From the UHGV virus genome UHGV-0155266: 41,512 nucleotides of DNA. One strand, 5' to 3'. The position numbers and the translations under genes were made by a program. The notes under the pieces were generated by a model that did no database searches, was not told the DNA's origin, and saw only the letters and a program-made list of their open reading frames with translations. Below are positions 3,119-34,299 of this stretch, one piece after another; position 1 is the stretch's first letter, and each line of letters starts with the position of its first letter. Source of the stretch: a virus.

Positions 3119-4249
3119 TCACAAAGCTACTTTGCTCCAGCCTTTCCCACGGTCATCATGATAACGATCGGTTTGTTGCTGTGTTTTGTGACCAAGTAGT
3201 TTTTGTGTATCTAATCCCTGTTCCTTGTAAAGGCGTTCAGATAAAGATCGTTGCTCATGGAATGTGGCAGGTGAACCTTCCCCCCAGTTAATTTCTGCTA
3301 AATCTCTTGCTTTACTAAAATTCATCGTCAATGTATTGGATTTTACCTGTGCTCCACGTTCTGCCTGCGAAGTTGAACGGAAAAAATGCACTAAGTATGG
3401 GCTGACTGCATAGTCACGGCAGCGAGCTACTACATCACGTAAACTCCAGTTAATCGCATTGAGGCGAAGAGAAAGCGGAATTGCGATTTTGCTCCCTGTC
3501 TTTTCTTGTACGACATGAAGATGATCATCCCAAATATCGCTAAATTTCATACGTGAAATATCACCTAACCGCTGACCAGTAACCAAGGCTAGCAGCATGG
3601 CATTTCCCATGTAACGATGGCTGGCATCTGCGATATCGAATATTTTTTTCCATTCTTCGAGGCTCAGCCGTTGTCGGGTAATTTTTCTTCTTGGCTGTTT
3701 AGTAGCTAATGCAGGGTTATAGCCAGGAGGTACTTCTCCGTAGTGCTGCGCCTCTTTGAAAACATCAATCAGGACGGATCGAACTACTTGTGCCATTCTC
3801 GGTTGCCCAGCGGCAATATACTCATCAAGTAATTGTGCAATATCCCGGACATCAACAGCTGAAATTAGCTTCAATCCTGCCCGTTCTCTAAGTAAGGAGA
3901 CAGGTTTGGCTTTCTGCTTGTAGGTGTTGAGCTTTATATCACCACTTTTCAGCCTGTCATTCTGGATCGCTTGATAGCGATCTAACCAAGTTGACGTTGT
4001 GATTGCTTTCCCTTTGCTGGTTGCGATCCTGTCACTGATGGCCAGAATCTGCCGGGTTCTTTGTTCAGCCAGGCGCGTATTGGCTTCAGTGGCAATAGCG
4101 ATAGCTTCAGCTTCGTTTGTTCCCAAAGCATGGAATTTCCCTGTTATTGGATGCTTATACCGCCAATAGACTTTATTTACCTTTCGGCTATAAAGCGGAT
4201 ATAAGTTAGGGACTGAAACATTATTCTTACGCGGTCTGGCTGCCATCAC
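3119..4249 (-). CDS. int: tyrosine integrase (lambda Int family)
   Basis: 376-aa ORF with the lambda-integrase-like layout (N-terminal arm-binding region, C-terminal catalytic region ending with conserved His/Tyr context); overlaps xis 3' end. Start is GTG at 4249 or ATG at 4246. Confidence 0.9.
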   Translation of the reverse strand: MMAARPRKNNVSVPNLYPLYSRKVNKVYWRYKHPITGKFHALGTNEAEAIAIATEANTRLAEQRTRQILAISDRIATSKGKAITTSTWLDRYQAIQNDRLKSGDIKLNTYKQKAKPVSLLRERAGLKLISAVDVRDIAQLLDEYIAAGQPRMAQVVRSVLIDVFKEAQHYGEVPPGYNPALATKQPRRKITRQRLSLEEWKKIFDIADASHRYMGNAMLLALVTGQRLGDISRMKFSDIWDDHLHVVQEKTGSKIAIPLSLRLNAINWSLRDVVARCRDYAVSPYLVHFFRSTSQAERGAQVKSNTLTMNFSKARDLAEINWGEGSPATFHEQRSLSERLYKEQGLDTQKLLGHKTQQQTDRYHDDRGKGWSKVAL

Positions 4250-4472
4250 TCAAAATCCGTTGCAAAAGTAATGAGTCATTTTTCTTAATTACTGGTGTTA
4301 CCAGCTCTCCAACTAACTCGGCGTCCTCACGCACTCGCCATAACCGACCTTGTTTCATTGCCGGTGGACAAAACAAATTCTGCTTAGCATAACGACGCAA
4401 CGTGGAAACGCTTGGAGGATTACTTCTGTATTTTTCAGAAGCCCATTCTTCAAGAGTTAACATTTGAAGCAT
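4227..4472 (-). CDS. xis: excisionase (lambda Xis-like)
   Basis: 81-aa ORF immediately upstream of and overlapping int; TLEEW...RRYAKQNLFCPPAMKQGRLW resembles the lambda Xis winged-helix core; AAGGTG 7-8 nt before the ATG. Confidence 0.8.
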   Translation of the reverse strand: MLQMLTLEEWASEKYRSNPPSVSTLRRYAKQNLFCPPAMKQGRLWRVREDAELVGELVTPVIKKNDSLLLQRILSDGSQTA

Positions 4473-4965
4473 ATGCGATCACCTTATTACTTCAATAACT
4501 GTTCAGTCTCTGCGTATCGACCCTGCAAGGTCGGTTAGTTTCTCCACAAAACAGAGAAGAACACCTGCGATGACTGCCGCCTGGATGGATTGGGTTATGA
4601 GCCCGTCGTCCGGTGATGCTCTTCTCTGTTTTGTAAAAAGGATGGTACCAGCCGGAAGCAAGGGTACAAACTGGTACCGTCAAGACTACACACAGCATAA
4701 AGTTGTGGTTCCGGGTGCCTCCCGGTGCCTGGCGAAGGTTGCACACCAGACGGGTGGGTATCCACAGAAGGTCGACTGTCAGCCTCAACCTTAACCCGCG
4801 TGCGCTGAGCCGCATTCACCACAACGCTAAGGATTCTCTCTGGTTGAAAATACTTAGCTGTTATGTGCCTGCTTTTAGCCACATCAGGCGAGGTGGACCT
4901 GGTTATTCCCCAACAACAAGGATTCGGTTAATCTGGTTATCCCCAACAACGCAAAAGGAAAAGAA
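4473..4965. other. GC-rich structured non-coding segment (candidate ncRNA or cis-element)
   Basis: Four overlapping stop-free frames on both strands and no RBS-led protein-like ORF. Perfect 15-bp inverted repeat 4546-4560/4620-4634 with 59-nt loop; 8-bp inverted repeat 4644-4651/4671-4678; further short GC stems. Confidence 0.35.
4898..4950 (+). repeat. direct repeat pair CTGGTTAT(T)CCCCAACAAC upstream of ORF 4966
   Basis: cctggttattccccaacaac at 4898-4917 and tctggttatccccaacaac at 4932-4950, about 34 bp apart, just 5' of the ATG at 4966. Confidence 0.6.
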
Positions 4966-5400
4966 ATGTCCGGTAATATCTATACGCTGTACAAATCCCA
5001 CTGTGAAAATGTTGGAAAGTATCGGGGCATTGAAATCAGTGGGGTAGTGTCATCAGTCGAAATAAGCAAAGTTGAATCAAGGGCAACATTACTTACTCTT
5101 CTGGACCTTGTCTTACATGAGCACCGGAAGAAATTCGGCACTCCCTATAATCAGTTGAATGGGAAAAAAGCTCTGGTTCACCTTATTCTGATGAAGCATC
5201 ACTGGATGCCAAAACAGATTAATGAGATGAAATTTGATGAACTTCTTCTTTCAATTCAGGATGAACTCACGCTTGATAAAATAAGCGTAACCGCCCAGAA
5301 ATTTTTAGATTATCGAGACTGGAGATCACAAATTCATCACTTTGATGATTTTGACGAAAATGAATGGGATCCTAATTTGTCTGCACAATATCTAAAGTAA
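4966..5400 (+). CDS. hypothetical protein (144 aa)
   Basis: ORF with AAGGAAAAG before the ATG; protein-like composition; no recognisable motif. Confidence 0.6.
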   Translation: MSGNIYTLYKSHCENVGKYRGIEISGVVSSVEISKVESRATLLTLLDLVLHEHRKKFGTPYNQLNGKKALVHLILMKHHWMPKQINEMKFDELLLSIQDELTLDKISVTAQKFLDYRDWRSQIHHFDDFDENEWDPNLSAQYLK

Positions 5401-5578
5401 CATCCTGTGATAAAACCGTGATTTCCTGATCCAGTTTTTTTAAGGAGTCTATTGTTTCCTGTCGATAAGACAGCACTTCACGAAGCTGGTTTATAGCTGC
5501 CAGCTTCTTTGCCATCCACTCGTAAATTTCCTCATTTGTGTATCCGGGTGCGACGATTTTTGGTTCTGTTTTGTGCAT
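5372..5578 (-). CDS. small hypothetical protein (68 aa, predicted helical)
   Basis: ATG at 5578 preceded by GGAGG with a 6-nt spacer; convergent with ORF 4966-5400 and overlapping its 3' end by 29 bp. The track ORF starts at an upstream TTG (5593). Confidence 0.5.
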   Translation of the reverse strand: MHKTEPKIVAPGYTNEEIYEWMAKKLAAINQLREVLSYRQETIDSLKKLDQEITVLSQDVTLDIVQTN

Positions 5579-5637
5579 TTCACACCTCCTCAAGTTATCA
5601 GTTACTTGTTGATGGGGACCAGATTGTTAAAGAGCTA

Positions 5638-19919: not shown

Positions 19920-21649
19920 GCCGGAAATCTTACCCCAACGTAAATGCTGCCAATCAGTATGCCCGTGATGTCGTGCGCGGAAAGATTGTGGCCTGCCAGT
20001 TTGTGATTCAGGCCTGCCAGCGCCATCTTGATGACCTGATGGCGGAAAAAAGTAAGTCGTTTCGTTACCGCTTCGACAAGGACCAGGCTGAACGGGCCGC
20101 GAAATTTATTCAGCTGTTGCCGCACACCAAGGGTGAGTGGGCATTCAAACGGATGCCCATCACGCTGGAGCCGTGGCAGCTCTTTGTGATCTGCTGCGCG
20201 TTTGGCTGGGTCAATAAAGGCTCCCGGCTGCGCCGCTTCCGGGAGGTGTATACCGAAATTCCCCGTAAGAACGGCAAATCGGCAATCTCTGCCGGTGTTG
20301 CCCTGTATTGTTTTGCCTGTGATAACGAGTTCGGCGCGGAAGTGTATTCCGGTGCCACGACGGAGAAACAGGCATGGGAAGTCTTTCGTCCGGCACGACT
20401 GATGTGTAAACGCACACCCATGCTGACGGAAGCGTTCGGGATTGAGGTTAACGCCTCAAACATGAACCGTCCGGAGGATGGCGCGCGGTTTGAACCGCTG
20501 ATCGGTAACCCCGGTGATGGATCATCACCCCACTGTGCGGTGGTGGATGAATATCACGAGCACGCCACCGATGCGCTTTACACCACGATGCTTACCGGGA
20601 TGGGGGCGCGACGTCAGCCACTGATGTGGGCCATTACTACTGCCGGGTACAACATTGAGGGGCCGTGCTACGACAAACGGCGGGAAGTTATCGAGATGCT
20701 CAACGGTTCGGTACCCAACGATGAACTGTTCGGGATCATCTATACCGTTGACGAAGGTGACGACTGGACCAACCCACAGGTGCTGGAAAAAGCCAACCCG
20801 AATATCGGGGTGTCGGTTTACCGTGAGTTTTTGTTAAGTCAGCAACAGCGTGCGAAAAATAACGCCCGTCTGGCAAACGTCTTTAAAACAAAACACCTCA
20901 ATATCTGGGTGTCGGCGCGTTCGGCGTATTTCAACCTGGTGAGCTGGCAGAGCTGCGAGGATAAATCACTGACTCTTGAGCAATTCGAGGGGCAGCCGTG
21001 CATTCTGGCCTTTGACCTGGCGCGTAAACTGGATATGAACAGCATGGCGCGACTTTATACCCGCGAGATTGACGGTAAAACGCATTACTACAGTGTGGCC
21101 CCGCGTTTCTGGGTACCGTATGACACGGTGTACAGCGTCGAGAAAAATGAAGATCGCCGGACAGCCGAACGCTTTCAGAAATGGGTGGAAATGGGCGTCC
21201 TGACCGTTACCGATGGTGCAGAGGTGGATTATCGCTACATCCTCGAAGAGGCCAAAGCGGCGAACAAAATCAGCCCGGTCAGCGAGTCACCCATCGACCC
21301 CTTCGGGGCGACCGGGCTGTCACATGACCTTGCTGATGAAGACCTGAATCCCGTCACTATCGTCCAGAACTTCACCAATATGTCCGATCCGATGAAAGAG
21401 CTGGAAGCAGCGATTGAATCGGGACGTTTTCATCATGACGGCAATCCCATCATGACCTGGTGTATCGGCAACGTGGTCGGCAAAAACATGCCGGGTAACG
21501 ATGATGTGGTGAAGCCCGTCAAAGAGCAGGCGGAAAACAAAATTGACGGTGCAGTTGCGCTGATTATGGCGGTTGGCAGAGCCATGCTGTACGAGAAAGA
21601 AGACACGCTGTCTGACCACATTGAGTCCTATGGGATCCGCTCGCTTTAA
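19916..21649 (+). CDS. terminase large subunit
   Basis: 577-aa protein with an N-terminal ATPase region (Walker A-like IPRKNGKS) and C-terminal nuclease region; typical position. Confidence 0.9.
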
Positions 21650-21660
21650 CTGAGGTAATT

Positions 21661-21843
21661 ATGATCATGCTGATTTTAGCGCCTCTGGTGGGCGTGCTGG
21701 GTGCGCTTTTGCTGGCGTATGGTGCCTGGCTGATTTATCCCCCGGCGGGTTTTGTTGTTGCCGGGGCGCTGTGCCTGTTCTGGTCGTGGCTGGTGGCGCG
21801 ATATCTCGACCGTACACAGTCGTCTGTCGGCGGAGGTAAATAG
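21661..21843 (+). CDS. small hydrophobic protein (60 aa)
   Basis: Two predicted TM segments; RBS-like GAGGT; lies between TerL and portal. Confidence 0.4.
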
Positions 21844-23084
21844 TGTTCTTTTCGGGATTATTTCAACGGAAAAGTGACGCACCGGTGACCACGCCAGCAG
21901 AGCTGGCGGATGCTATCGGGTTGTCCTACGACACCTATACCGGAAAGCAGATCAGCAGCCAGCGGGCCATGCGACTGACGGCGGTTTTTTCCTGTGTCAG
22001 GGTGCTGGCGGAGTCGGTCGGGATGTTGCCCTGCAACCTGTATCACCTGAACGGCAGCCTGAAGCAGAGAGCCACTGGCGAACGTCTGCATAAGCTGATC
22101 TCCACGCATCCCAATGGCTATATGACGCCGCAGGAGTTCTGGGAGCTGGTGGTCACCTGTCTGTGCCTGCGGGGAAACTTTTACGCCTACAAAGTGAAAG
22201 CATTTGGCGAAGTGGCTGAACTGCTGCCCGTCGATCCCGGCTGTGTGGTACCGAAGCTTAACAGTAGCTGGGAGCCGGTCTATCAGGTCACATTCCCGGA
22301 TGGCTCCACGGATGTACTGAGCCAGGAGGATATCTGGCATGTGCGCACGCTGACGCTGGACGGACTGGTGGGGCTGAATCCCATCGCCTATGCCCGCGAG
22401 GCAATATCGCTGGCGGCAGCGACCGAAGAGCACGGGGCCAGACTGTTCAGCAATGGCGCGGTGACGTCGGGTGTGTTGCGTACAGAGCAGACGCTGTCAG
22501 ATCAGGCTTACGAGCGCCTGAAGAAAGATTTTGAGGAGCGTCACACCGGGCTTGGTAATGCTCACCGCCCGATGATCCTTGAGATGGGGCTGGACTGGAA
22601 GTCGATGGCGCTGAACGCCGAGGACAGCCAGTTCCTGGAAACCCGCAAGTTTCAGCTTGAAGAAATCTGTCGTCTGTTCCGGGTGCCGTTGCACATGGTG
22701 CAGAACACCGATCGCGCCACCTTCAACAATATTGAAGAGCTGGGGCTGGGATTTATCAACTATTCACTGGTGCCGTATCTGACCCGCATCGAACAGCGGA
22801 TCAACACCGGACTGGTACGAAAAAGTAAGCAGGGCGTTTATTACGCCAAATTTAACGCCGGGGCGTTACTGCGCGGGGATATGAAGTCCCGTTTTGAAGC
22901 CTACGCCACCGGGATTAACTGGGGAATTTACTCTCCCAATGACTGCCGCGACCTGGAAGATATGAATCCGCGTCCCGGTGGTGATGTCTATCTCACACCG
23001 ATGAACATGACCACGAAACCCTCCGATGGCAGTAAAGCCGGTAAGCAGAAGGATAACGCCAATGCAGACGAAACAACGTCTTGA
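21843..23084 (+). CDS. portal protein (HK97 family)
   Basis: 413-aa ORF after the terminase; GTG start with GGAGG 6 nt upstream; size and position fit an HK97-type portal. Confidence 0.85.
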   Translation: MFFSGLFQRKSDAPVTTPAELADAIGLSYDTYTGKQISSQRAMRLTAVFSCVRVLAESVGMLPCNLYHLNGSLKQRATGERLHKLISTHPNGYMTPQEFWELVVTCLCLRGNFYAYKVKAFGEVAELLPVDPGCVVPKLNSSWEPVYQVTFPDGSTDVLSQEDIWHVRTLTLDGLVGLNPIAYAREAISLAAATEEHGARLFSNGAVTSGVLRTEQTLSDQAYERLKKDFEERHTGLGNAHRPMILEMGLDWKSMALNAEDSQFLETRKFQLEEICRLFRVPLHMVQNTDRATFNNIEELGLGFINYSLVPYLTRIEQRINTGLVRKSKQGVYYAKFNAGALLRGDMKSRFEAYATGINWGIYSPNDCRDLEDMNPRPGGDVYLTPMNMTTKPSDGSKAGKQKDNANADETTS

Positions 23085-23712
23085 TGTACCGCTGAGTCTG
23101 AAATCTGTCAGTGACTCCGGTGAGTTTGAAGGGTATGGCTCCGTCTTTGGTGTAAAGGACAGCCACGATGATGTGGTGATGTCCGGGGCATTTGCTGCTT
23201 CCCTGCGGGCGTGGAGTGACAGAAAAGCGTTACCTGCGCTGCTCTGGCAGCACCGCATGGATGAGCCCATCGGAGTTTACACCGAAATGAAGGAAGACGA
23301 TGTCGGGCTTTACGTCAGGGGGCGGTTGCTCATTGATGATGATCCCCTGGCAAAACGCGCACATGCACACATGAAGGCCGGTTCGTTAACCGGCCTTTCT
23401 ATTGGGTACGTCCTGAAGGACTGGGAATACGACCGGAGCAAAGAAGCCTTTCTGCTGAAAGAAATCGACCTCTGGGAAGTCAGTCTGGTGACGTTTCCGT
23501 CTAACGACGAGGCGCGGATCAGCGACGTCAAGAACGCGCTGGCCCGCGGGGAAATCCCCGAACAGAAAAAAATCGAAAGAGTCCTGCGTGATGTCGGACT
23601 CTCCCGTACCCAGGCCAAAGCATTCATGGCCGGGGGCTATGGCGCACTGTCCCTGCGCGACGCTGAGGATGTGGGCTCTGCACTGAATGCACTGAAAAAT
23701 CTGAACTTCTAA
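23062..23712 (+). CDS. prohead protease (HK97 family)
   Basis: Located between portal and major capsid; ATG at 23062 within the track ORF. Confidence 0.8.
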   Translation: MQTKQRLDVPLSLKSVSDSGEFEGYGSVFGVKDSHDDVVMSGAFAASLRAWSDRKALPALLWQHRMDEPIGVYTEMKEDDVGLYVRGRLLIDDDPLAKRAHAHMKAGSLTGLSIGYVLKDWEYDRSKEAFLLKEIDLWEVSLVTFPSNDEARISDVKNALARGEIPEQKKIERVLRDVGLSRTQAKAFMAGGYGALSLRDAEDVGSALNALKNLNF

Positions 23713-23726
23713 TCAGGAGAAATACG

Positions 23727-24932
23727 ATGTCGGTTGATATTAAAGATGTGGAACAGGTCGCGCAGGAGCTGCAGCAGAAGTTTGACGACTTCAAAGCAAA
23801 GAACGACAAGCGCGTGGATGCGATTGAGCAGGAAAAAGGCAAACTTGCCGGGCAGGTGGAAACCCTGAACGGGAAACTCAGCGAGCTGGAAAATCTCAAA
23901 AGCGACCTTGAAAAAGAGCTGCTTGAGCTGAAACGTCCGGCAGGGGGTGCGCAAAATAAACTGGCCACCGAGCATAAAGAAGCGTTTGTGGGCTTCCTGC
24001 GTAAAGGCCGTGAAGATGGTCTGCGCGATCTGGAGCGCAAGGCATTACAGGTGGGCACCGATGAAGACGGTGGCTATGCCGTGCCGGAAGCGCTGGATCG
24101 CAACATTCTGACCTTGCTGAAAGATGAAGTGGTGATGCGCCAGGAAGCCGCGGTGATCACCGTTGGCGGTTCCGACTACAAAAAACTGGTGAATCTGGGC
24201 GGCACGGCTTCCGGATGGGTTGGCGAGACTGACGCGCGCTCCCAGACTGCCACCTCCAGACTGGGGCTGATTGAACCTTTCATGGGGGAAATCTACGGTA
24301 ACCCGCAGGCCACCCAGAAAATGCTGGATGATGCCTTTTTCAACGTGGAGGCCTGGATCAACAGCGAGCTGGCAACCGAATTTGCCGAACAGGAAGAAAT
24401 TGCCTTTACCACCGGCGATGGTACCAAGAAGCCGAAAGGGTTCCTGGCGTATGAATCCACTGATGAAACCGATAAGGTCCGGGCGTTCGGCAAACTTCAG
24501 CATATTGTATCCGGCGACGCGACTGCGGTGACCGCAGACGCCATTATCAAACTGATTTACACGCTGCGAAAGGCACACCGCACCGGCGCGAAGTTCATGA
24601 TGAACAACAACAGCCTGTTTGCCATCCGTTTGCTGAAAGACAGCGAGGGTAACTATCTGTGGCGTCCGGGGCTGGAACTGGGGCAGCCGTCCTCTCTGGC
24701 GGGTTACGGTATCGCTGAAAACGAACAGATGCCGGATATCGCCGCTGATGCGAAAGCCATTGCATTTGGTAACTTCAAACGGGGTTACACCATCGTTGAC
24801 CGTATCGGCACCCGCATTCTGCGTGACCCGTACACCAATAAACCGTTTGTCGGTTTTTATACCACCAAGCGCACCGGCGGGATGCTGGTCGATTCGCAGG
24901 CCATCAAACTGCTGAAGATTGCAGCGGCGTAA
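23727..24932 (+). CDS. major capsid protein (HK97 fold)
   Basis: 401-aa protein with an N-terminal coiled-coil delta-like region followed by the capsid core; AGGAG RBS; directly after the protease. Confidence 0.9.
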   Translation: MSVDIKDVEQVAQELQQKFDDFKAKNDKRVDAIEQEKGKLAGQVETLNGKLSELENLKSDLEKELLELKRPAGGAQNKLATEHKEAFVGFLRKGREDGLRDLERKALQVGTDEDGGYAVPEALDRNILTLLKDEVVMRQEAAVITVGGSDYKKLVNLGGTASGWVGETDARSQTATSRLGLIEPFMGEIYGNPQATQKMLDDAFFNVEAWINSELATEFAEQEEIAFTTGDGTKKPKGFLAYESTDETDKVRAFGKLQHIVSGDATAVTADAIIKLIYTLRKAHRTGAKFMMNNNSLFAIRLLKDSEGNYLWRPGLELGQPSSLAGYGIAENEQMPDIAADAKAIAFGNFKRGYTIVDRIGTRILRDPYTNKPFVGFYTTKRTGGMLVDSQAIKLLKIAAA

Positions 24933-24939
24933 TCACTCA

Positions 24940-24959
24940 GGGGCGCGGAACCGCGCCCC
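24940..24959 (+). terminator. GC-rich hairpin after the capsid gene (attenuator/terminator-like)
   Basis: GGGGCGCGG-AA-CCGCGCCCC palindrome 8 bp after the capsid stop; weak T-run. Confidence 0.4.
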
Positions 24960-24981
24960 CTGTTCTGACGGGTGAAGAATC

Positions 24982-25182
24982 ATGATCCTGAAACAAGATC
25001 TGAAATGGTCACCGGACGGTATGCGTGTTGAGGTCATTCGGGCCGGTGAGTATGACGACGGGGCGCTTCCTGCCCGGGTGCAGGAGATTGCACTTCAGGC
25101 CGGGTTAGCAGAGCGCGGAACCCGTGCAAAAAGCAGTAAAGCGGCAAAAGAGAAAAAAGCCACGACCAGTAAAGAGGGCTGA
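24982..25182 (+). CDS. small hypothetical protein (66 aa)
   Basis: ORF between capsid and connector genes with a Lys-rich C-terminus. Confidence 0.4.
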   Translation: MILKQDLKWSPDGMRVEVIRAGEYDDGALPARVQEIALQAGLAERGTRAKSSKAAKEKKATTSKEG

Positions 25183-25184
25183 GT

Positions 25185-25508
25185 ATGCTTCTGACAATGG
25201 AAGAGATTAAAGCTCAACTCCGGCTGGATGAGGATTTCGATGCTGATGACTGCCATCTGCAACTGCTGGCCTGTGCGGCGCAAAAGCGGACGGAAACGTA
25301 TCTGAACCGGAAGCTCTATGCACCGGATGAAACCATTCCGGACAGCGATCCGGACGGGCTGCACCTGCCGGATGATATTCGTCTGGGGATGCTGATGCTT
25401 ATCAGCCATTTTTACGAAAACCGCTCGTCGGTTACGGAAGTGGAGAAACTCGACATGCCGCAGAGTTTTGGCTGGCTTGTCGGCCCGTACAGGTACTTTC
25501 CGCAATGA
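25185..25508 (+). CDS. head-tail connector protein (gp6-like)
   Basis: 107-aa ORF in the expected position with a strong RBS. Confidence 0.6.
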   Translation: MLLTMEEIKAQLRLDEDFDADDCHLQLLACAAQKRTETYLNRKLYAPDETIPDSDPDGLHLPDDIRLGMLMLISHFYENRSSVTEVEKLDMPQSFGWLVGPYRYFPQ

Positions 25509-25915
25509 AAATTCGTCAGGCGCAGACCAGCGCAACCTACATTCTGCCGGACCCCGGTGAACTGAATAAACGCATCCTGATCCGCCAGCGGGTGGATATG
25601 CCCGCGGATAACTTTGGCGTGGAGCCTCAATACCCGGTTACGTTCCGGACATGGGCGAAGGTTATCCAGACCAGTGCCACCACCTGGCAGGAAACCGCGC
25701 AGACCGGAGACGCCATCACCCATTACATCACCATTCGCTACCGCCGGGGGATCACCGCTGATTATGAGGTGGTCTGCGGTGACAGTGTGTACCGGGTAAA
25801 ACGTCAGCGCGATCTGAACGGGGCGCGGCGCTTTCTGCTGCTGGAGTGTACGGAGCTGGGCGAATTTACGCAGAGTCACGGAGGCAACAATGGCGACTTC
25901 CTTTTTTCACGTTGA
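25505..25915 (+). CDS. head closure / head-tail adaptor protein
   Basis: 136-aa ORF, translationally coupled; assigned by position and size. Confidence 0.6.
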   Translation: MKIRQAQTSATYILPDPGELNKRILIRQRVDMPADNFGVEPQYPVTFRTWAKVIQTSATTWQETAQTGDAITHYITIRYRRGITADYEVVCGDSVYRVKRQRDLNGARRFLLLECTELGEFTQSHGGNNGDFLFSR

Positions 25916-26396
25916 TGTTCAGCAGCCCGCAGAGATGCGCTTTAACCGCGCCCGTGTCCGGCGGGCGTTTGTCACGATTGGGCAGCGTCATATGCGTGAT
26001 GCCCGTCGGCTGGTGATGCGCCGTGCGCGGTCGGCACCGGGTGAAAACCCCGGTTATCAGACCGGACGCCTGGCTCGTTCGATTGGTTATATGGTACCCA
26101 GAGCCAGTAAACATCGCCCTGGTTTTATGGCACGTATAGCCCCTAACCAGCGCAACGGGAAGGGGAACCGGATGATCTCTGGTGACTTCTATCCGGCGTT
26201 TCTGTTTTTTGGTGTCCGGGGAGGAGCAAAACGTCGTCGCAGTCATCATCGTGGTGCATCCGGTGGCAGCGGCTGGCGACTGGCTCCACGTAATAACTTC
26301 ATGGTGGAAACTCTTGAAAAGAACCGCAGCTGGACACGCTATTTTCTGGCGCGGGAATTGCGTAAATCACTGAAGCCGGAGCGACGACACAGATGA
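25890..26396 (+). CDS. HK97 gp10-like neck protein
   Basis: 168-aa basic protein with GGAGG RBS; assigned by position. Confidence 0.55.
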   Translation: MATSFFHVDVQQPAEMRFNRARVRRAFVTIGQRHMRDARRLVMRRARSAPGENPGYQTGRLARSIGYMVPRASKHRPGFMARIAPNQRNGKGNRMISGDFYPAFLFFGVRGGAKRRRSHHRGASGGSGWRLAPRNNFMVETLEKNRSWTRYFLARELRKSLKPERRHR

Positions 26397-26953
26397 AACT
26401 GACGCCTGTTATTGCTGCACTGCGTGCCCGCTGTCCGTATTTTGAAAACCGGGTTGCAGGCGCGGCCCAGTTCAAAAATCTGCCGGAGGTCGGAAAGCTG
26501 AAACTCCCGGCGGCATATGTGGTACCGGGTGATGATTCTCCAGGAGAAAACAAAAGCCAGACCGACTACTGGCAGGAGCTGAAAGAGGGCTTCTCCGTGG
26601 TTGTCATACTGAGTAACGGGCGTGATGAGCGCGGTCAGTTTGCCTCGTATGATGTGGTGGACGATGTCCGGCAGATGCTCTTTAAGGCTCTGCTGGGCTG
26701 GAACCCGGAGGCGTGCGGTAACCCGATTACCTATGACGGCGGCACGCTGCTGGATCTGAATCGTCATGAGCTGATTTATCAGTTCGATTTTTCGGTCATC
26801 AGCGAGCTGACTGAAGACGATACCCGCCAGCAGGATGACCTGAACAGTCTGGATGAACTGCGAACGCTGGCGATTGATGTTGATTATCTCGATCCCGGTA
26901 ACGGGCCTGACGGCGATATCGAACATCACACCGAAATACCCCTTCCTTCCTGA
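26393..26953 (+). CDS. tail terminator / tail completion protein
   Basis: 186-aa ORF immediately before the sheath operon; assigned by position. Confidence 0.5.
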   Translation: MKLTPVIAALRARCPYFENRVAGAAQFKNLPEVGKLKLPAAYVVPGDDSPGENKSQTDYWQELKEGFSVVVILSNGRDERGQFASYDVVDDVRQMLFKALLGWNPEACGNPITYDGGTLLDLNRHELIYQFDFSVISELTEDDTRQQDDLNSLDELRTLAIDVDYLDPGNGPDGDIEHHTEIPLPS

Positions 26954-26961
26954 GGATCATC

Positions 26962-27132
26962 ATGTTTGTGAAACCTGTTAAAGGGCGGTCAGTGCCTGAC
27001 CCTGCCCGCGGCGACCTTTTGCCCGCCGAAGGGCGAAATGTTGATGAGAACAACTACTGGCTGCGCCGTGAAGCAGCGGGTGATATCCGGCGCGTGAATA
27101 AAAAGGTGAACACCGATGACGATAAGCTTTAA
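26962..27132 (+). CDS. small protein preceding tail sheath (DUF2635-like, 56 aa)
   Basis: ATG at 26962 after GAGGA; absent from the ORF track (below cutoff); overlaps the sheath start; Mu-like tail modules carry a small gene here. Confidence 0.4.
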   Translation: MFVKPVKGRSVPDPARGDLLPAEGRNVDENNYWLRREAAGDIRRVNKKVNTDDDKL

Positions 27133-28612
27133 CACCATTCCGTCGAATACGCTGGTTCCGCTGTTTTATGCGGAAATGGATAACCAGGCTGCGAATACTG
27201 CACAGGACAGCGGAGCATCGCTGCTGATTGGTCATGCCAATAACGGTGCAGAGATTGTTGCCAACAGTCTGGTGCTGATGCCGTCGGCAGACTATGCACG
27301 CCAGATTTGTGGTGCGGGAAGTCAGCTGGCGCGTATGGTCGAGGCTTATCGCCAGACCGACCCGTTTGGTGAGCTGTATGTGATTGCCGTTCCGGAAGCC
27401 ACAGGCGCGGCGGCAACGGTTACGCTGACGGTGACCGGGGAAGCAACCGAAAGCGGCACGGTGAATGTCTATGTGGGACGTACCCGCGTGCAGGCTCCGG
27501 TGACCAACGGCGATAACGTCACGACGATTGCCAGCAGTATCAAAGATGCCATCAATGCCGTTCCGACTCTGCCGTTTACAGCTTCATCTTCGGCTGGTGT
27601 TGTCACGCTGACCGCGCGTCATAAGGGGCTTTGCGGGAATGAAATTCCTGTCAGCCTCAATTACTACGGCTTCGGTGGGGGCGAAGTGCTGCCAGCGGGC
27701 GTACAGATTGCCGTGGCGACGGGGACCGCCGGAACGGGCGCTCCGGTTCTCACCGGCGCGGTGGCTGCAATGGCGGATGAGCCGTTTGATTATATCGGTC
27801 TGCCGTTCAACGACACGGCCTCCGTTAACACGCTGGTGACCGAGATGAACGATACCAGCGGTCGCTGGAGCTATGCGCGTCAGCTGTATGGTCATGTGTA
27901 TACGGCAAAGACCGGCACACTGTCAGAACTGGTGAACGCAGGTGACCAGTTTAACCGGCAGCACATCACCCTGGCGGGGTACGAAAAAGAGACCCAGACG
28001 CCTGCCGACGAGCTGGCGGCAAGCCGTACCGCCCGCGCAGCGGTGTTTATCCGCAACGATCCGGCACGTCCCACGCAGACCGGTGAGCTGGTGGGTATGC
28101 TGCCTGCGCCGAAGGGGAAACGGTTCACGATGACCGAGCAGCAGACCCTGCTGTCTCATGGCGTGGCAACGGCGTATGTCGAAAGCGGGGTGCTGCGCAT
28201 TCAGCGTGATGTCACCACGTACAGGAAAAATGCTTACGGGGTTGCGGATAACAGCTACCTCGACAGCGAGACGCTGCATACCAGTGCGTATGTACTGCGC
28301 AAACTGAAATCCGTCATTACCAGTAAGTACGGGCGTCACAAGCTTGCCAGCGACGGTACCCGCTTTGGTCCCGGTCAGGCGATTGTCACCCCGGCGGTAA
28401 TCAAAGGGGAACTGCTGGCAACCTACCGTCAGCTTGAGCGTGCGGGGATCGTGGAAAACTACGAACTGTTTAAGCAGTACCTGGTTGTGGAGCGTGATGC
28501 CAGCGATCCGAACCGCCTGAACACGCTGTTCCCGCCTGACTATGTTAACCAGTTGCGTGTTTTTGCCGTGGTTAACCAGTTCCGTCTTCAGTATTCAGAG
28601 GAGTCTGCATAA
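27116..28612 (+). CDS. contractile tail sheath protein
   Basis: 498-aa protein; size, position and composition match Mu/P2-type sheath proteins. Confidence 0.85.
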   Translation: MTISFNTIPSNTLVPLFYAEMDNQAANTAQDSGASLLIGHANNGAEIVANSLVLMPSADYARQICGAGSQLARMVEAYRQTDPFGELYVIAVPEATGAAATVTLTVTGEATESGTVNVYVGRTRVQAPVTNGDNVTTIASSIKDAINAVPTLPFTASSSAGVVTLTARHKGLCGNEIPVSLNYYGFGGGEVLPAGVQIAVATGTAGTGAPVLTGAVAAMADEPFDYIGLPFNDTASVNTLVTEMNDTSGRWSYARQLYGHVYTAKTGTLSELVNAGDQFNRQHITLAGYEKETQTPADELAASRTARAAVFIRNDPARPTQTGELVGMLPAPKGKRFTMTEQQTLLSHGVATAYVESGVLRIQRDVTTYRKNAYGVADNSYLDSETLHTSAYVLRKLKSVITSKYGRHKLASDGTRFGPGQAIVTPAVIKGELLATYRQLERAGIVENYELFKQYLVVERDASDPNRLNTLFPPDYVNQLRVFAVVNQFRLQYSEESA

Positions 28613-28968
28613 TGGCCCGTATCGGGGGAACCTGTTATTTCAAAATTGACGGTCAGCAGCTATCGCTGACCGGCGGCATTGAGGTGCCCATGAACAGGAC
28701 GGTCAATGATGACATCATCGGCCTGGACGGTTCAGTGGACCGCAAGGAAACTCACCGTGCGCCTTATGTCAAAGGGACCTTCAAGGTGCCGAAGAATTTT
28801 CCGGTGAGCAAAATCACCTCGTCTGATGAGATGACCATCACTGCCGAGCTGGCGAACGGTCAGGTCTATGTATTGTCGTCCGCCTGGCTGCACGGAGAAG
28901 CGAACCATAATGCCGAAGAAGGCACGGTTGATCTTGAGTTCCACGGTGAAGAAGGGGATTACCAGTAA
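28612..28968 (+). CDS. tail tube protein
   Basis: 118-aa ORF translationally coupled to the sheath (ATG overlaps the sheath stop). Confidence 0.7.
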   Translation: MARIGGTCYFKIDGQQLSLTGGIEVPMNRTVNDDIIGLDGSVDRKETHRAPYVKGTFKVPKNFPVSKITSSDEMTITAELANGQVYVLSSAWLHGEANHNAEEGTVDLEFHGEEGDYQ

Positions 28969-29237
28969 TGAAAGAGCTTGAGTTAAAGAAACCGATTATC
29001 GCTCATGGTGAGACACTCTCCGTACTGGAGTTTGATGAACCCACCGGGAAGGATGTCCGCGAGCTGGGGTATCCCTACCAGATGAATCAGGATGAGTCCG
29101 TCAGACTTCTGGCGCATGTGGTGTCGAAATACATTGTGCGGCTGGCGAAAGTGCCGCAAAGCTCTGTCGACCAGATGTCTCCGGCAGACCTGAATGCAGC
29201 GGCGTGGCTTGTGGCTGGTTTTTTCCTCCAGGCCTGA
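28968..29237 (+). CDS. tail assembly chaperone (short form)
   Basis: 89-aa ORF between tube and tape measure; contains the slippery heptamer T_TTT_TTC near its 3' end. Confidence 0.65.
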   Translation: MKELELKKPIIAHGETLSVLEFDEPTGKDVRELGYPYQMNQDESVRLLAHVVSKYIVRLAKVPQSSVDQMSPADLNAAAWLVAGFFLQA

Positions 29238-29386
29238 CGGCTGAATACCTCACTGATCGCTTCTTTGACTGCGCCAGCTACTGGCGCATTAATCCCTTCG
29301 AATTGCTGAATATGCCGATCAGTGAAATTCCCTTGCTGGTCAGTCAGGCAAACAGGATAGAGCAGGAGAAACGCACACATGGCTGA
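29219..29386 (+). CDS. -1 frameshift extension of the tail assembly chaperone
   Basis: Slippery T_TTT_TTC at 29219-29225; the -1 frame stays open to 29386, overlapping the tape-measure start. Confidence 0.5.
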   Translation, partial: FFPPGLTAEYLTDRFFDCASYWRINPFELLNMPISEIPLLVSQANRIEQEKRTHG

Positions 29387-31211
29387 ATTTGAGCTTAAGG
29401 CGTTGATCACCGGTGTCGACAGGCTTTCTCCCGCGCTGTCGAAAATGCAAAAGAAAATCCGGGGATTTAAACGCCAGGCGGAAGAAGCGTCACAGGGTGG
29501 GCTGGCGCTTGGTGGCGGACTGGCAGCGGGTCTGACGCTTTCCCTGAAATCTTATGCCGATCAGGAAAACGCCGCCACCGGGCTGAAAGTCGCCATGATG
29601 GATGCGAACGGCGAGGTTGGAAAGAGCTTTCAGGACATCAATAAACTGGCTATTGGCCTGGGTAATCAGCTACCCGGTACAACGGCTGATTTCCAGAACA
29701 TGATGCAGATGCTGGTGCGTCGGGGGATCCCGGCAGAAAACATTCTTGGCGGTGTGGGTAAAGCGACAGCTTATCTTGCGGTACAACTGAAAAAAACACC
29801 GGAAGCGGCTGCCGAGTTTGCCGCAAAGATGCAGGATGCTACCGGAACGGCGTCAGAAGACATGATGGGGCTGTTCGACACTATCCAGAAGGCGTTTTAT
29901 CTGGGCGTTGACGATACCAACATGTTGTCCTTCTTCACTAAAACCAGTTCTGTTCTGAAGATGGTGAACAAGGACGGTCTTCAGGCTGCACAGAGCCTTG
30001 CCCCCATCAGCGTCATGATGGATCAGATGGGGATGAACGGGGAGTCGGCAGGTAACGCCCTGCGAAAAGTTATCCAGTCCGGATTAAGCGTTAAGAAAAT
30101 CAGGGACGTCAATAAAATCATGGCCCGCCAGAAACTCGGGGTACAGCTCGATTTTACTGACGGCAAAGGGAGTTTTGGCGGTCTTGATAACATGTTCAGG
30201 CAACTGGCAAAGCTGCGAAAACTGACCGACGTTAAGCGAACAGGCGTACTTAAGGCAATATTTGGTGATGATGCTGAAACCCTTCAGGTGGTCAATGCAC
30301 TAATCGATAAAGGAAAGGATGGCTACGATCAGATCCAGCAGAAGATGAATAAACAGGCCAGCCTGAATAAACGTGTTCAGGCTCAGCTTGGTACGCTGTC
30401 CAACCTGTGGGAGGCAATGACGGGGACCGCAACTAACGGTCTTGCAGCTATTGGCGGCGCATTTTCTGGTGACGCCAAAAATATCACGCAGTGGCTGGGG
30501 GAGTTGGGGGAGAAATTCACGAAGTTTGCGGATGAAAATCCCCGGGTTATTCGCGGCGTCGTCGGGCTTGCTGCCGGTCTTGCGATTCTGAAACTGGGAT
30601 TGATGGGCGTGGGCAGTGCCATCAGTATTGTCAGCAGGATTATGTCGATGACGCCGATTGGCATGATTGCGACGGCGATTGCTCTGGCTGCGGGATTAAT
30701 TATCACTAACTGGGATGTTGTCGGACCTTATTTTAAGAAGCTCTGGGAAACCATTGGTCCTTATTTTGAGGCTGGCTGGGAACTTCTGAAGAAGGTTTTT
30801 GCCTGGTCGCCGCTGGGGATGGTGATCAATAACTGGGGACCGGTTGTTAAGTGGTTTCAGGATATGTGGGATAAGCTGAAGCCAATTATTGAGTGGTTTA
30901 CCGACAGTTCCGGTGACACGGTCGATGCCATTAACTCTGCGCAGTGGGGCGCGGGTGCTTATGATGCTTATGGGACGGGAATACCGGCGCGGGGATACAC
31001 ACCTTATCCGGCGGTAGATCTGGCTCAGTCAAACAACGCCTCCGATGCCACAGGCCCGAATCCCTTCATGATTAACAAAGCTTCTGCGCCAAAAGTTGAT
31101 GGTGAGATCAAGGTATCATTTATAAATATGCCACCAGGTATGCGGGTTACGGAAACACGCTCCAGTGGCATTGATATAAATCACGATGTTGGCTATACCC
31201 GATTTTGGTAG
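29379..31211 (+). CDS. tail tape measure protein
   Basis: 610-aa protein, Ala/Gly-rich with helical and TM segments; directly downstream of the frameshifted chaperone. Confidence 0.85.
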   Translation: MAEFELKALITGVDRLSPALSKMQKKIRGFKRQAEEASQGGLALGGGLAAGLTLSLKSYADQENAATGLKVAMMDANGEVGKSFQDINKLAIGLGNQLPGTTADFQNMMQMLVRRGIPAENILGGVGKATAYLAVQLKKTPEAAAEFAAKMQDATGTASEDMMGLFDTIQKAFYLGVDDTNMLSFFTKTSSVLKMVNKDGLQAAQSLAPISVMMDQMGMNGESAGNALRKVIQSGLSVKKIRDVNKIMARQKLGVQLDFTDGKGSFGGLDNMFRQLAKLRKLTDVKRTGVLKAIFGDDAETLQVVNALIDKGKDGYDQIQQKMNKQASLNKRVQAQLGTLSNLWEAMTGTATNGLAAIGGAFSGDAKNITQWLGELGEKFTKFADENPRVIRGVVGLAAGLAILKLGLMGVGSAISIVSRIMSMTPIGMIATAIALAAGLIITNWDVVGPYFKKLWETIGPYFEAGWELLKKVFAWSPLGMVINNWGPVVKWFQDMWDKLKPIIEWFTDSSGDTVDAINSAQWGAGAYDAYGTGIPARGYTPYPAVDLAQSNNASDATGPNPFMINKASAPKVDGEIKVSFINMPPGMRVTETRSSGIDINHDVGYTRFW

Positions 31212-31302
31212 CCAGGATTCCCCTCACAGGTATTGCTGGTTGTAAGTCATAAATAGAGTGATAGAATTAATGCACATTTAGAAAAATGTTAATAGGCGAA
31301 AA

Positions 31303-31833
31303 ATGAAAGGCTATATCACAGCAAGTGTAATTCTTGGAGCAGCGGCTGTTTTTTCATCTCTCATAATCTCTGGCAACATCTCCTTTAAAGATGAACATAT
31401 TATTCAGTTATCTGGAGGAGCCATAAAACTTGGTGATGTTTATAAAGAAAATAAATTGATAAGTGCAAAGATTATTTTTCCAGATAATCAGGGTGAACAG
31501 ATTCTTGTTGTCGACGGCAATCCTGAAAACTTTAAGGAGGATTTTCAGGAGAAATTAAATAAAGTAATAAAAACTTTAAATGCGTCAAAGAAAAAAGATG
31601 AAGAGAAAGTTAGCCTGGATAATTTAAGTGTTATTGAAGAGTCTAAACTAGAGCTCGTTTCTGCGGTGCGTTACTCTGCTCAGTATGTTCCTATGTTTAC
31701 TCTGACGCTGGACAAAAAAGAAATTACCATGCCTAAAAATACGGTAATATTTCCATTTGCCAGCGATGAAACAGCTAAGTATTTAAATGAACAACAGCAA
31801 AAGTATAAAGATTCGTTGTTTCTGACTCGCTAA
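31303..31833 (+). CDS. hypothetical secreted/membrane-anchored protein (tail-region moron)
   Basis: 176-aa AT-rich ORF with a signal-peptide-like N-terminus (ITASVILGAAAVFSSLIISG) and its own terminator, inserted between tape measure and baseplate genes. Confidence 0.55.
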   Translation: MKGYITASVILGAAAVFSSLIISGNISFKDEHIIQLSGGAIKLGDVYKENKLISAKIIFPDNQGEQILVVDGNPENFKEDFQEKLNKVIKTLNASKKKDEEKVSLDNLSVIEESKLELVSAVRYSAQYVPMFTLTLDKKEITMPKNTVIFPFASDETAKYLNEQQQKYKDSLFLTR

Positions 31834-31853
31834 TTAATAAAATTCATTACAAG

Positions 31854-31878
31854 GCCACCTTCTAATAGGTGGCTTTTT
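31854..31878 (+). terminator. rho-independent terminator
   Basis: GCCACCT-TCTAAT-AGGTGGC hairpin followed by TTTTT. Confidence 0.6.
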
Positions 31879-31894
31879 AATTTTCGGAGTATAT

Positions 31895-33223: not shown

Positions 33224-34299
33224 ACGATAACGTCACGCTACGGGTAAATGGCCGGGAGTGGAATGGCTGGACATCGGTGCGCATCGGTGCCGGTATTGAA
33301 CGGCTGGCGCGGGATTTCAGCGTGGAGATCACCCGCCAGTGGCCGGGAGATGAGGGTATCACCACGCTTCAGCCGCGCATTAAAAATGGTTCAAAAGTGG
33401 AAGTGCTGATTGGTGATGAGCTGGTGATCACCGGCTGGGTGGAGGCGACCCCCGTTCGTTACGATGCCCGTTCGGTCAGCACCGGTATTGCCGGACGTAG
33501 TCTGACTGCTGACCTGATTGACTGTGCAGCCGAACCGACACAGTTTAACGGACGATCGCTGGTACAGATTGCGCAGGCGCTTGCTGCGCCTTTCGGCATT
33601 GAGGTGGTGAACAGCGATGCGCCGTCGGGTGTTATTCCGGATGTCCAGCCTGATCACGGTGAAACGGTGATCGAGGTGATCAACAAAATACTCGGTCAGC
33701 AGCAGGCGCTGGCTTACGACGACCCGCACGGCAGGCTGGTGATTGGCGGTATTGGCTCAACGCGGGCACATACCGCGCTGGTACTCGGGGAAAACATCCT
33801 TTCCTGCGATACGGAGAAGAGTATCCGGGAGCGGTTTTCTGTTTACCAGGTGGCGGGGCAGCGTGCCGGAAACGACGATGATTTCGGTGAGGCCACCACC
33901 ACCGCGCTGCGGGCCCGCACAGAGGACGCATTTATTGCCCGTTACCGTCCGATGTATATCAGGCAGACAGGGCAGGCTACGGGGGCAGGCTGTATTGCGC
34001 GTGCTGACTTTGAAGCCCGGCAACGGGCGGCGCGGACGGATGAAACCACCTATGTGGTGCAGGGCTGGCGACAGGGTAACGGTACGCTGTGGCAGCCCAA
34101 CCAGCGGGTGATTGTCTTTGATCCGGTCTGTGGTTTTGACAATACCGAACTGCTTGTTTCGGAAGTCACGTTTACTCAGGACCAGAACGGCACCCTGACG
34201 GAAATCCGTGTCGGCCCGCCTGATGCTTATCTGCCTGAACCTGAAGACCCCGGCGCGCGGAAAAAGAAAAAAGCCAGAGTACAGGAGGACCCGTTCTGA
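33220..34299 (+). CDS. baseplate hub protein (Mu gp44/P-like)
   Basis: 359-aa ORF, translationally coupled, at the Mu P position. Confidence 0.7.
   Translation: MNDNVTLRVNGREWNGWTSVRIGAGIERLARDFSVEITRQWPGDEGITTLQPRIKNGSKVEVLIGDELVITGWVEATPVRYDARSVSTGIAGRSLTADLIDCAAEPTQFNGRSLVQIAQALAAPFGIEVVNSDAPSGVIPDVQPDHGETVIEVINKILGQQQALAYDDPHGRLVIGGIGSTRAHTALVLGENILSCDTEKSIRERFSVYQVAGQRAGNDDDFGEATTTALRARTEDAFIARYRPMYIRQTGQATGAGCIARADFEARQRAARTDETTYVVQGWRQGNGTLWQPNQRVIVFDPVCGFDNTELLVSEVTFTQDQNGTLTEIRVGPPDAYLPEPEDPGARKKKKARVQEDPF

Follow-up and report, generated by a model that had tools for sequence, protein, structure and literature searches.

What do the roughly 490 bp encode that lie between the excisionase gene xis and a divergently transcribed gene in the viral genome UHGV-0155266 (41,512 nucleotides; this whole stretch is referred to as the window)? 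The window corresponds to a lambdoid, e14-like prophage with its integration site beside icd, and an initial annotation had described the segment in question (positions 4473-4965) as GC-rich and hairpin-dense, with no convincing coding frame and no match to a known RNA. Our analyses show that the segment is an RNA read from the minus strand and not a decayed gene, and that it contains a structured RNA of the STnc100/PasD family followed by an intrinsic terminator. The segment probably constitutes the non-coding leader of the leftward xis-int operon, which releases a small RNA of this family by early termination and gives the excision genes by read-through.

Results

A structured RNA on the minus strand

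The GC content amounts to 0.53-0.54 over positions 4501-4950, compared with 0.42-0.45 on the flanks, and both inverted repeats reported initially are real: the 15-bp repeat (4546-4560/4620-4634) grows to 18 nt, 94% of them complementary, and the 8-bp one to 11 nt (4641-4651/4671-4681). Folding of both strands, one of the checks that had been proposed, yielded a z-score of -3.3 for the minus strand of the whole segment versus -1.45 for the plus strand. The segment was matched in 74 phage records, among them SfV, SfII, SfIV, ST64B, mEp460, cdtI, Stx2, Klebsiella and Cronobacter phages, and in 2781 of 5426 complete E. coli genomes; one E. coli chromosome is 100% identical to the window over positions 4473-4965.

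Regarding known RNAs, the initial statement stood for tRNA and tmRNA, since ARAGORN called 0 genes in the window and in six related loci and no tRNA match occurred in the Rfam E-value scan of positions 4200-5200. In one point it was incomplete: at the gathering threshold Rfam gave no match over the whole window, but a 1-kb E-value scan revealed a sub-threshold match to STnc100 (RF02076) on the minus strand, from 4855 to 4632 and over the full length of the model (31.8 bits, E = 6e-5). The initial annotation had thus missed a described family, as well as the fact that the segment consists of several separate modules and not of one RNA.

The core belongs to a divergent STnc100-type subfamily

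The core of the element (coordinates of all features are given in Table 1) contains the 17-nt motif CACCGGGAGGCACCCGG, corresponding to helix P5, exactly at 4711-4727(-). This motif occurs once in the window, with 0 expected in shuffled sequences, and its flanks vary greatly among the at least 120 IMG/VR viral contigs that contain it. Loci that share it and have flanks of the common type (CCCCC) score 53-175 bits as STnc100, and window-type sequences remain uncalled by Rfam; the Rfam threshold misses the divergent subfamily to which the window copy belongs. When 127 distinct copies were compared side by side, a single architecture emerged, in which P1 is followed by the junction AAU, P2 (5 bp with a bulged A and a pentaloop UNNGC), a pseudoknot strand pairing with the P4 loop, a variable P3 region, P4, a single A, and P5, which runs directly into the 3' strand of P1. 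In the window, GUUGUGGUGAAU...CCCGGAACCACAAC supplies the GGUGAAU at the 5' junction and the CACC of the 3' strand right after P5. The minimum free energy (MFE) fold of the isolated core gives P1, P2, P4 and P5.

Covariation was analyzed in an alignment of 48 diverse relatives; complementarity had served to trim P1 at its outer end. Of 8 pairs of P1, 6 covary, and over P1, P2 and P5 together 99.3% of the cells are paired, with 96 cells changed on both sides compared with 27 in shuffles (0/500); sliding of the partner strands, used as a control, reduced the pairing to 37-50%. P5 carries no weight in this pair count, being invariant by construction because the loci were fetched by the P5 motif. 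Its sole test is Kp4866-6, where P5 reads GGUGG-AGGCA-CCACC, with the loop kept and the stem covarying. Between the common type (CCCCC/GG-GGG) and the window type (GCGGC/GC-CGC), three pairs of P2 are flipped. P4 and the pseudoknot could not be aligned by MAFFT and were counted by a custom script, whereas the pair-count tool was applied to P1, P2 and P5. At least 6 bp of P4 form in 71% of the sequences versus 8% of the shuffles, with 21 different stems, and at least 6 bp of the pseudoknot in 76% versus 21%, with 24 distinct strands. Shuffles were chosen here because a control with non-cognate pseudoknot strands was weak (6.4 versus 4.7), owing to the CUGG-rich strands that many relatives share. 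Within the subfamily of the window, the pseudoknot changes from AAGGUUG/CAACCUU to AAGGCUG/CAGCCUU in phiES15.

The covariance model R1 built from the alignment finds one copy in the window (4703-4824, 70.2 bits, with the window in the seed). Matches outside the seed were phiES15 (75.8 bits) and the e14 prophage of E. coli K-12 (58.4 bits, inside the ymfH coding sequence), and weaker ones were obtained for Kp4866-6, mEp460 and Stx2a_1447. The window copy has an A at 4710, producing a G.A at the innermost pair of P1; the base is C in 47 of 48 relatives, and this private C-to-A change may slightly weaken the core.

The open reading frames behave as non-coding sequence

Four open reading frames (ORFs) overlap the segment: 4492-4815(-) with 107 codons, 4595-4882(-) with 95, 4570-4794(+) with 74 and 4703-5047(+) with 114. 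A protein or a decayed protein gene was one candidate explanation, with either YmfH on the minus strand or the PHROG 3651 product on the plus strand. In its favor, RefSeq has ymfH for K-12 and, at the identical locus of the E. coli chromosome, a 'frameshifted hypothetical protein', and ORF 4570-4794(+) matches phrog_3651 with E = 2.6e-47. We compared the window with eight homologues (60-96% identity) and counted substitutions per codon position in 4570-4794(+) and 4492-4815(-). The counts were flat, with 16/20/17 in the plus and 24/27/26 in the minus ORF versus ST64B, and 30/25/24 and 39/34/41 versus Kp4866-6. Versus K-12, the minus ORF showed 14/10/11, and the window has two 1-nt insertions, which account for the 'frameshifted' call by PGAP. 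Indel runs of 1, 2, 5, 7, 8 and 20 nt are common among the homologues and stops arise on straight read-through. Neither an excess of third-position substitutions nor a preference for frame-preserving indels was detected in either frame among the eight homologues, although a 20-nt and a 1-nt insertion jointly preserve the plus frame between the window and ST64B. No Pfam match was obtained for the plus ORF. Since ORF calls are the raw material of PHROG families, non-coding DNA that is highly conserved can yield a spurious family, and we take PHROG 3651 to consist of such calls on conserved non-coding sequence.

The lack of a convincing coding frame noted initially was thereby borne out. The preference for structured RNA or non-coding DNA over a gene was upheld as well, and none of the results named beforehand as speaking against it was obtained: the alignment of homologues revealed compensatory changes in P1 and P2, P4, the pseudoknot, the long hairpin and the terminator stem, and, in answer to the request for a discrete transcript, minus-strand RNA 3' ends are on record for the orthologous region of K-12 (see below; PMC7815308).

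This orthologous region is ymfH (b1142) in e14, which is 89% identical to the window and has the same neighbors, xisE and intE. The gene is annotated as encoding a protein of 103 amino acids, whereas the present evidence indicates an RNA element: the annotation (positions 3995-4306 of our K-12/BW25113 e14 locus, L130) shares sequence with the terminator and the long hairpin as well as with the STnc100-type core. In the K-12 copy one base of the P5 loop is deleted and a P5 pair is broken; both lesions are absent from the window copy. As far as the searched literature goes, the recognition of ymfH as this RNA appears to be new.

Transcript ends in K-12 and expression of relatives

In Term-seq data from E. 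coli MG1655 (Adams et al., PMC7815308, supplementary files 1 and 3), three minus-strand 3' ends are listed, at 1201423, 1201257 and 1201195. The first was found in all three growth conditions with the highest score and lies right after the conserved 5' block described below, at window position 4865. The second lies 4 nt past P1 (window 4698), and the third, 163 nt ahead of xisE, coincides with the final U of the terminator (window 4635). In the entries extracted from these files, Rho dependence is marked 'No' for 1201423 and 1201257, and no call is shown for 1201195 (PMC7815308). The position of the third end shows that the intrinsic terminator after the core works in the K-12 orthologue. DNA damage induces ymfH, xisE and intE along with the remainder of e14, and Reg-Seq treats the three genes as one operon.

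Relatives of the core are discrete, Hfq-dependent small RNAs verified by Northern blotting (PMC8550237, PMC5331693, bioRxiv 10.64898/2026.05.13.724894). The 11 STnc100 copies in EDL933 and PasD1 and PasD2 in enteropathogenic E. coli (EPEC) are expressed in lysogens.

Terminator, long hairpin and xis leader downstream of the core

A conserved linker sequence, UGCUGUGUGUAGUCUUG, follows the core, as seen in a comparison of the window with SfV, ST64B, phiES15 and Kp4866-6. It could be a seed region or, alternatively, one strand of a long-range helix with CACAUA at 4867-4862. The terminator hairpin from 4681 to 4633 has a folding energy of -15.3 kcal/mol (z = -3.4) and combines a GC-containing stem with a U-run, which predicts an RNA 3' end at about 4635, where the K-12 end maps to the last U. 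It was missed by a simple scanner because its loop exceeds 8 nt. The stem sequence differs among relatives and still pairs, as GUCGGCGUC/GACGCCGAC in ST64B and as GCCCGC/GCGGGC in phiES15. A canonical terminator is found in 69 of 115 units of the wider family, at a median distance of 26 nt past P1. Pairings of P4 with the terminator arms that could act in antitermination were considered and dropped, being inconsistent between the window and ST64B.

The long hairpin that follows has a z-score of -6.0 on the minus and -5.2 on the plus strand. Two of its stem positions show compensatory change, and its U.G and G.U wobbles, one of them invariant, pair in the minus sense only. The module is 93-95% conserved in Stx2, mEp460 and cdtI phages. 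The small hairpin in the 5' untranslated region (UTR) of xis is kept in K-12 with one loop change, and a different hairpin occupies the same site in ST64B.

A separate 5' module and a variable domain upstream of the core

Upstream of the core lies a module of its own (4956-4865), for which the Rfam E-value scan returned no family match. Its general form, taken from the window (4865-4956) and loci L133-L236, consists of one or two hairpins with G-rich loops followed by CCACCNNGCCUGANGUGGNNAAAAG(N)CAGGCAC. The window has one exact occurrence of the 5' block pattern, which is also contained in at least 120 IMG/VR contigs, where it always adjoins the start of a divergently transcribed gene; on its 3' side there is, depending on the contig, an STnc100-type core, directly a terminator, an ORF or another insert. 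In contigs with a terminator directly after the module, a stand-alone unit of about 130 nt results. The 5' block may form an H-type pseudoknot (CCAC:GUGG and GCCUG:CAGGC), according to a structural model whose stems are invariant in all copies, and it may represent an undescribed RNA motif.

Of the G-loop hairpins, Hb has 30 distinct stems among 65 distinct homologous upstream sequences, with stems of at least 5 bp in 85% versus 42% of shuffles; G.U counts left its strand undecided. The two direct repeats r1 and r2, unremarked in the initial annotation, match the repeat motif at 4940-4950 and 4907-4917, and this two-repeat layout recurs in many viral contigs. Repeat r1 abuts the start codon (4966) and the ribosome site of the divergent gene of the ECs1072 family. 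A third site of GTTGNTGGGGA at 5608-5618(+), the one-mismatch copy GTTGATGGGGA, was rejected as being at chance level (7 of 100 shuffles); it is intergenic, between a gene for 73 amino acids and a gene for a BRCT-domain protein.

Between 5' block and core, ST64B and phiES15 form the P0 hairpin from different sequences, and Salmonella phages 118970_sal3 and F1055 and Klebsiella phage Kp4866-6 have a large insert at this site. The insert (minus strand, about 2815-2930 in locus L128 and the equivalents in L129 and L127) contains two T-arm-like hairpins, CUGGUUCGAUUCCAG and GUCCGUUCAAUUCGGAC; ARAGORN called no tRNA in it in any of these three. In F1055 (L129, about 2650-2800), the same P1 strands, linker, terminator and long hairpin surround an unrelated core without the CCGGGAGGCACCCGG hairpin, an arrangement suggestive of a core exchange within an unchanged scaffold.

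Genomic context of the element family

The element occupies the interval from the repressor to the first early-left genes in SfV, ST64B, Stx2a_1447, mEp460, phiES15, sal3 and F1055, and points in the same direction as these genes. In a set of 40 diverse units of the STnc100 type, the RNA and its nearest ORF have the same orientation in 30 cases on the downstream side and in 28 on the upstream side. Their upstream neighbors include Q-like antiterminators, repressors and methyltransferases, their downstream neighbors endolysins, holins and Kil. From this survey, the recurrent site is therefore a leader just after the repressor or Q and just before a terminator. Many units adjoin phage tRNA clusters or form tandem arrays.

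Such arrays, found in metagenomic viral contigs, comprise 3-5 STnc100-type units with a period of about 253 bp and a terminator for each unit (L026 342-1038, L042 1811-2333, L079 4464-5451 and 8491, L016 2265-3380), and often adjoin phage tRNA genes and the small RNAs AgvB or isrI. In Shigella phage SfV (L004, from about 3420, plus strand) and also in L199, an ORF starting with MTFDEKELDNAINK lies right beside the element on the plus strand. It is conserved as a protein in a divergent contig (MTFDEKDLNYALSK); the SfV record annotates orf33 instead, on the opposite strand and further along. Salmonella phage ST64B (L002 5732-5920) contains IsrK (64 bits) and C4 antisense RNA (80 bits) side by side, right of cro, indicating that an antisense immunity module of the P1/P7 type is present in the same phage as the early-left element.

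To the right of the segment, PHROG and Pfam scans of the window identified a cI-like repressor, a CII-like regulator, an O-like replication protein and a Q-like antiterminator, and the prophage otherwise looks complete. Between the icd attachment site and int, an AT-rich cargo island (257-2905, about 30-37% GC) encodes a HEPN/Toprim-associated protein of 445 amino acids and a hypothetical protein of 309 amino acids and is likely a moron region or one for anti-phage defence. An IS3 element (L001 7010-8172) sits between the ECs1072-family gene and the minus-strand gene for 73 amino acids in the E. coli chromosome, which is otherwise identical, and is absent from the window (5400-5600).

Table 1. 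Position and description of the RNA modules and flanking genes (window coordinates; RNA motifs are given in minus-strand sense)
Feature	Position	Strand	Description and basis
intE / int	3119-4249	minus	3' of xis; RefSeq annotation of identical E. coli locus
xis (excisionase; xisE)	4227-4472	minus	First gene downstream of leader; PHROG 629 (E = 4e-31), Pfam Exc, RefSeq
Rest of xis 5' UTR	4473-4517	minus	Shine-Dalgarno AAGGUGA at 4485-4479
'Frameshifted hypothetical protein' pseudogene (PGAP)	4503-4822	minus	Annotation of identical E. coli locus
Small hairpin CGACC-UUGCAG-GGUCG	4518-4533	minus	In xis 5' UTR; RNA folding
Long hairpin	4546-4634	minus	89 nt; 20-bp basal stem and conserved apical region GACGGGCUCAUAACCCAAUCCAUCC
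Intrinsic terminator	4633-4681	minus	Stem GGUACCAG.../...CUGGUACC extended by 2 bp, then CUUUUUAC
Linker UUUAUGCUGUGUGUAGUCUUGAC	4679-4701	minus	Conserved in subfamily even where terminator differs
STnc100/PasD-type core	4702-4825	minus	About 124 nt; four-way junction and pseudoknot; Rfam, custom model R1, covariation
P1	4825-4817 with 4710-4702	minus	Closing helix; then junction AAU
P2	4813-4798	minus	5 bp, bulged A, pentaloop UCAGC
Pseudoknot	4792-4786 (AAGGUUG) with P4 loop 4741-4735 (CAACCUU)	minus	
P4	4751-4727	minus	Then single A
P5	4725-4711	minus	CCGGG-AGGCA-CCCGG
P0 hairpin	4826-4858	minus	Variable domain between 5' block and core; -10.4 kcal/mol, z = -4.8
Conserved 5' block CCACCUCGCCUGAUGUGGCUAAAAGCAGGCAC	4865-4896	minus	32 nt; last base is strong RNA 3' end in K-12
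Hairpin Hb (repeat r2)	4898-4921	minus	G-rich apical loop UGGGGA; directly 5' of conserved block
Repeat r1	4920-4956	minus	First copy of GUUGUUGGGGA (4940-4950), weak hairpin
ECs1072-family gene	4966-5400	plus	Divergent from xis; annotation of identical E. coli locus

Discussion

A leader that may release a small RNA ahead of xis and int

Taken as the leader of the excision operon, the element would usually stop leftward transcription at about 4635, or transcripts would be trimmed back to the core, and the released product would be a stable structured small RNA of about 230-330 nt that, by analogy with its relatives, probably acts in trans with Hfq. Transcripts carrying xis and int would be only those reading past the terminator, and the element would therefore act as an attenuator or insulator that keeps expression of the excision genes low until prophage induction. 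The long hairpin, situated on the read-through mRNA, probably sets its stability or translation.

Several observations weigh against this interpretation. The STnc100 score of 31.8 bits is below the gathering score of 47 for RF02076. Binding of Hfq and targets in trans are extrapolated from the relatives, and a small RNA that simply base-pairs would not usually show so strongly conserved and complex a fold, which suggests a partner that the interpretation does not name. A scan for sigma-70 promoters over 4200-5200 found none on either strand; by eye, a candidate TTCACA-17-TATAGA that lacks the final T can be discerned at about 5007-4979(-). The Term-seq support comes from an orthologue with 89% identity and a damaged P5, and the dominant 3' end in K-12 is located at the 5' block, not at the terminator, so that most transcripts may never reach the core in the uninduced prophage. 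Finally, PHROG and Pfam scans detected no N-like gene among the four called ORFs from xis to the repressor (xis, the ECs1072-family gene, the 73-amino-acid ORF and the BRCT protein) that might carry RNA polymerase past the terminator on induction.

Alternative functions of the element

A broader possibility is that the whole leader of about 490 nt, composed of G-loop hairpins, 5' block, P0, STnc100-type core, terminator and long hairpin, is one RNA control device for the leftward early or excision operons of lambdoid phages without N. In such a device, the core would bind polymerase, a factor or a ligand and thereby decide between small RNA and read-through into xis and int, and the 5' block would be a separate motif that makes a protected or terminated 3' end. 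We regard this as a tentative proposal that is rather unlikely to be correct as a whole.

It is also conceivable, though unlikely in our view, that the core serves as a binding platform or decoy for a protein or small ligand, for example as a cloverleaf-like mimic of tRNA, titrating a factor of host or defence origin. Invariant loops and junctions (GGUGAAU, UNNGC, AGGCA) combined with freely covarying stems and a pseudoknot are a pattern seen in riboswitches and protein-binding RNAs, and the four-way junction has no linker between P5 and P1. The vicinity of phage tRNA clusters, the tandem arrays and the T-arm-like hairpins in P0 of some relatives are likewise consistent with a tRNA mimic; however, neither ARAGORN nor the Rfam E-value scan of 4200-5200 recognized a tRNA, and no partner gene co-occurs consistently. 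A ymfH over-expression clone was reported to trigger the retron-Sen2 toxin RcaT (bioRxiv 10.1101/2020.06.22.160242), an effect that could in principle come from the RNA, but the result was obtained with a protein-expression library without RNA-level analysis.

Decidedly doubtful is a function as a cis-acting processive antiterminator or attenuation switch, similar to HK022 put or Bacillus EAR, in phages without N, in which the folded leader would modify the polymerase or switch pairings to permit passage into xis-int or other early-left genes. Its place at the start of the leftward operon and just before a terminator would be consistent with such a role, as is the lack of an N-like gene among the four scanned ORFs. 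In addition, the upstream sequence CACAUAAC can pair with the 5' strand of P1 so that P1 itself is replaced, and the full-length MFE fold uses this pairing, which, however, shows no covariation. Casjens and colleagues suggested put-like RNAs for lambdoid phages lacking N, such as LLS, and LLS has part of the long hairpin. On the other hand, members of the family accumulate in the form of discrete RNAs, each stopping at its own terminator, and many copies are located in Q-controlled late regions beside tRNA genes, where no RNA antiterminator is needed. The window contains a single copy and none in the rightward operon, and sequence similarity to the put region of HK022 is absent.

We assign an equally low likelihood to the idea that the window copy is an inactive remnant of an element that is decaying in e14-type prophages and merely fills the space between divergent genes. 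The A at the innermost P1 pair, the presence of the exact 73-nt version of the window in only 2 of 1798 matching E. coli records, and the deleted loop base and broken P5 pair of the K-12 e14 copy would fit with decay. But a single terminal G.A does only mild damage to a helix of 9 bp, no lesion affects the remaining helices, the pseudoknot, the terminator or the long hairpin in a prophage that appears otherwise complete, and even the damaged K-12 copy gives defined RNA ends.

It is very improbable that the conservation reflects signals at the DNA level, such as operators, promoters or sites for recombination proteins that serve the ECs1072-family gene and xis. Two direct repeats do adjoin the start of the divergent gene, the G.U test assigns no strand to Hb, and the 5' arm of Hb is complementary to the Shine-Dalgarno sequence of the divergent gene in relatives with a single hairpin. 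Nevertheless, variable stems with constant loops are the opposite of the pattern expected for protein-DNA half-sites, the wobbles of the long hairpin are valid only in minus-sense RNA, RNA 3' ends have been mapped, and the scan found a promoter-like site on neither strand. A protein-coding origin deserves the least credence of all, since, beyond the substitution and indel patterns in both frames, the same bases are accounted for by helices that covary in relatives without a shared ORF.

Relation to known systems

STnc100 (RF02076), a small RNA of gammaproteobacterial prophages, is among the closest described relatives of the proposed leader RNA. It follows the same strand logic, has P1 with GGUGAAU and CACC, P2, P4 and an identical P5 (CCGGGAGGCACCCGG), continues likewise through a linker into a Rho-independent terminator, and is carried by lambdoid prophages. 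The window element differs by the three flipped pairs in P2 (GCGGC/GC-CGC instead of CCCCC/GG-GGG), a larger P3 region, the additional 5' module and P0, the long loop of the terminator and a pseudoknot that is not part of the RF02076 consensus structure. Moreover, it is situated in the leader of the leftward early or excision operon, whereas STnc100 lies between Q or tRNA genes and lysis genes.

With regard to the proposed mode of action, Sy et al. in 2020 are reported to have found that StxS, like the lambda 6S (PR'-tR') RNA, arises by early termination in the leader of a phage operon that is expressed by read-through. StxS and lambda 6S share this mode with the proposed window leader, but are made from a late promoter and are not known to contain a four-way-junction or pseudoknot domain or to have a sequence relationship to the window.

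PasD1 and PasD2 of EPEC E2348/69, detected by RIL-seq, are prophage-encoded, Hfq-dependent and Northern-verified, and a 2026 preprint describes them as structural relatives of STnc100 that derive from a common ancestor (bioRxiv 10.64898/2026.05.13.724894). They lie near Q and LpxR or esterase genes, and the window element is likened to them via STnc100 and not by direct sequence. HK022 put shares with the window element the location in the early leftward leader of a lambdoid phage, before terminators, and the nature of a structured RNA (PMC9378689). However, put comprises about 73 nt with two stem-loops and a triplex and lies where the PL transcript begins, and the PR operon contains another copy, whereas the window core is a four-way junction of about 124 nt with a pseudoknot, is present as a single copy, and has relatives that stop at their own terminators. 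Comparison of HK022 positions 20000-33500 with the window gave no similarity beyond chance matches of 10-14 nt.

The STnc100/PasD family is known, and new here are a divergent subfamily below the Rfam threshold, a different position in the operon and additional conserved modules. A stretch that was unannotated or misannotated, as 'hypothetical protein', as 'frameshifted' pseudogene or as ymfH, becomes a defined RNA element, and there is one entry fewer among the uncharacterised proteins of E. coli K-12. The fold model of the STnc100/PasD family becomes more complete by the bulged A and the pentaloop of P2 and by a covarying pseudoknot between J2/3 and the P4 loop. Because a whole subfamily scores below the Rfam threshold, censuses of prophage small RNAs undercount these elements. 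For the biology of the family, the recurrent placement suggests a link between small-RNA production and the control of read-through into excision, early-left or lysis genes.

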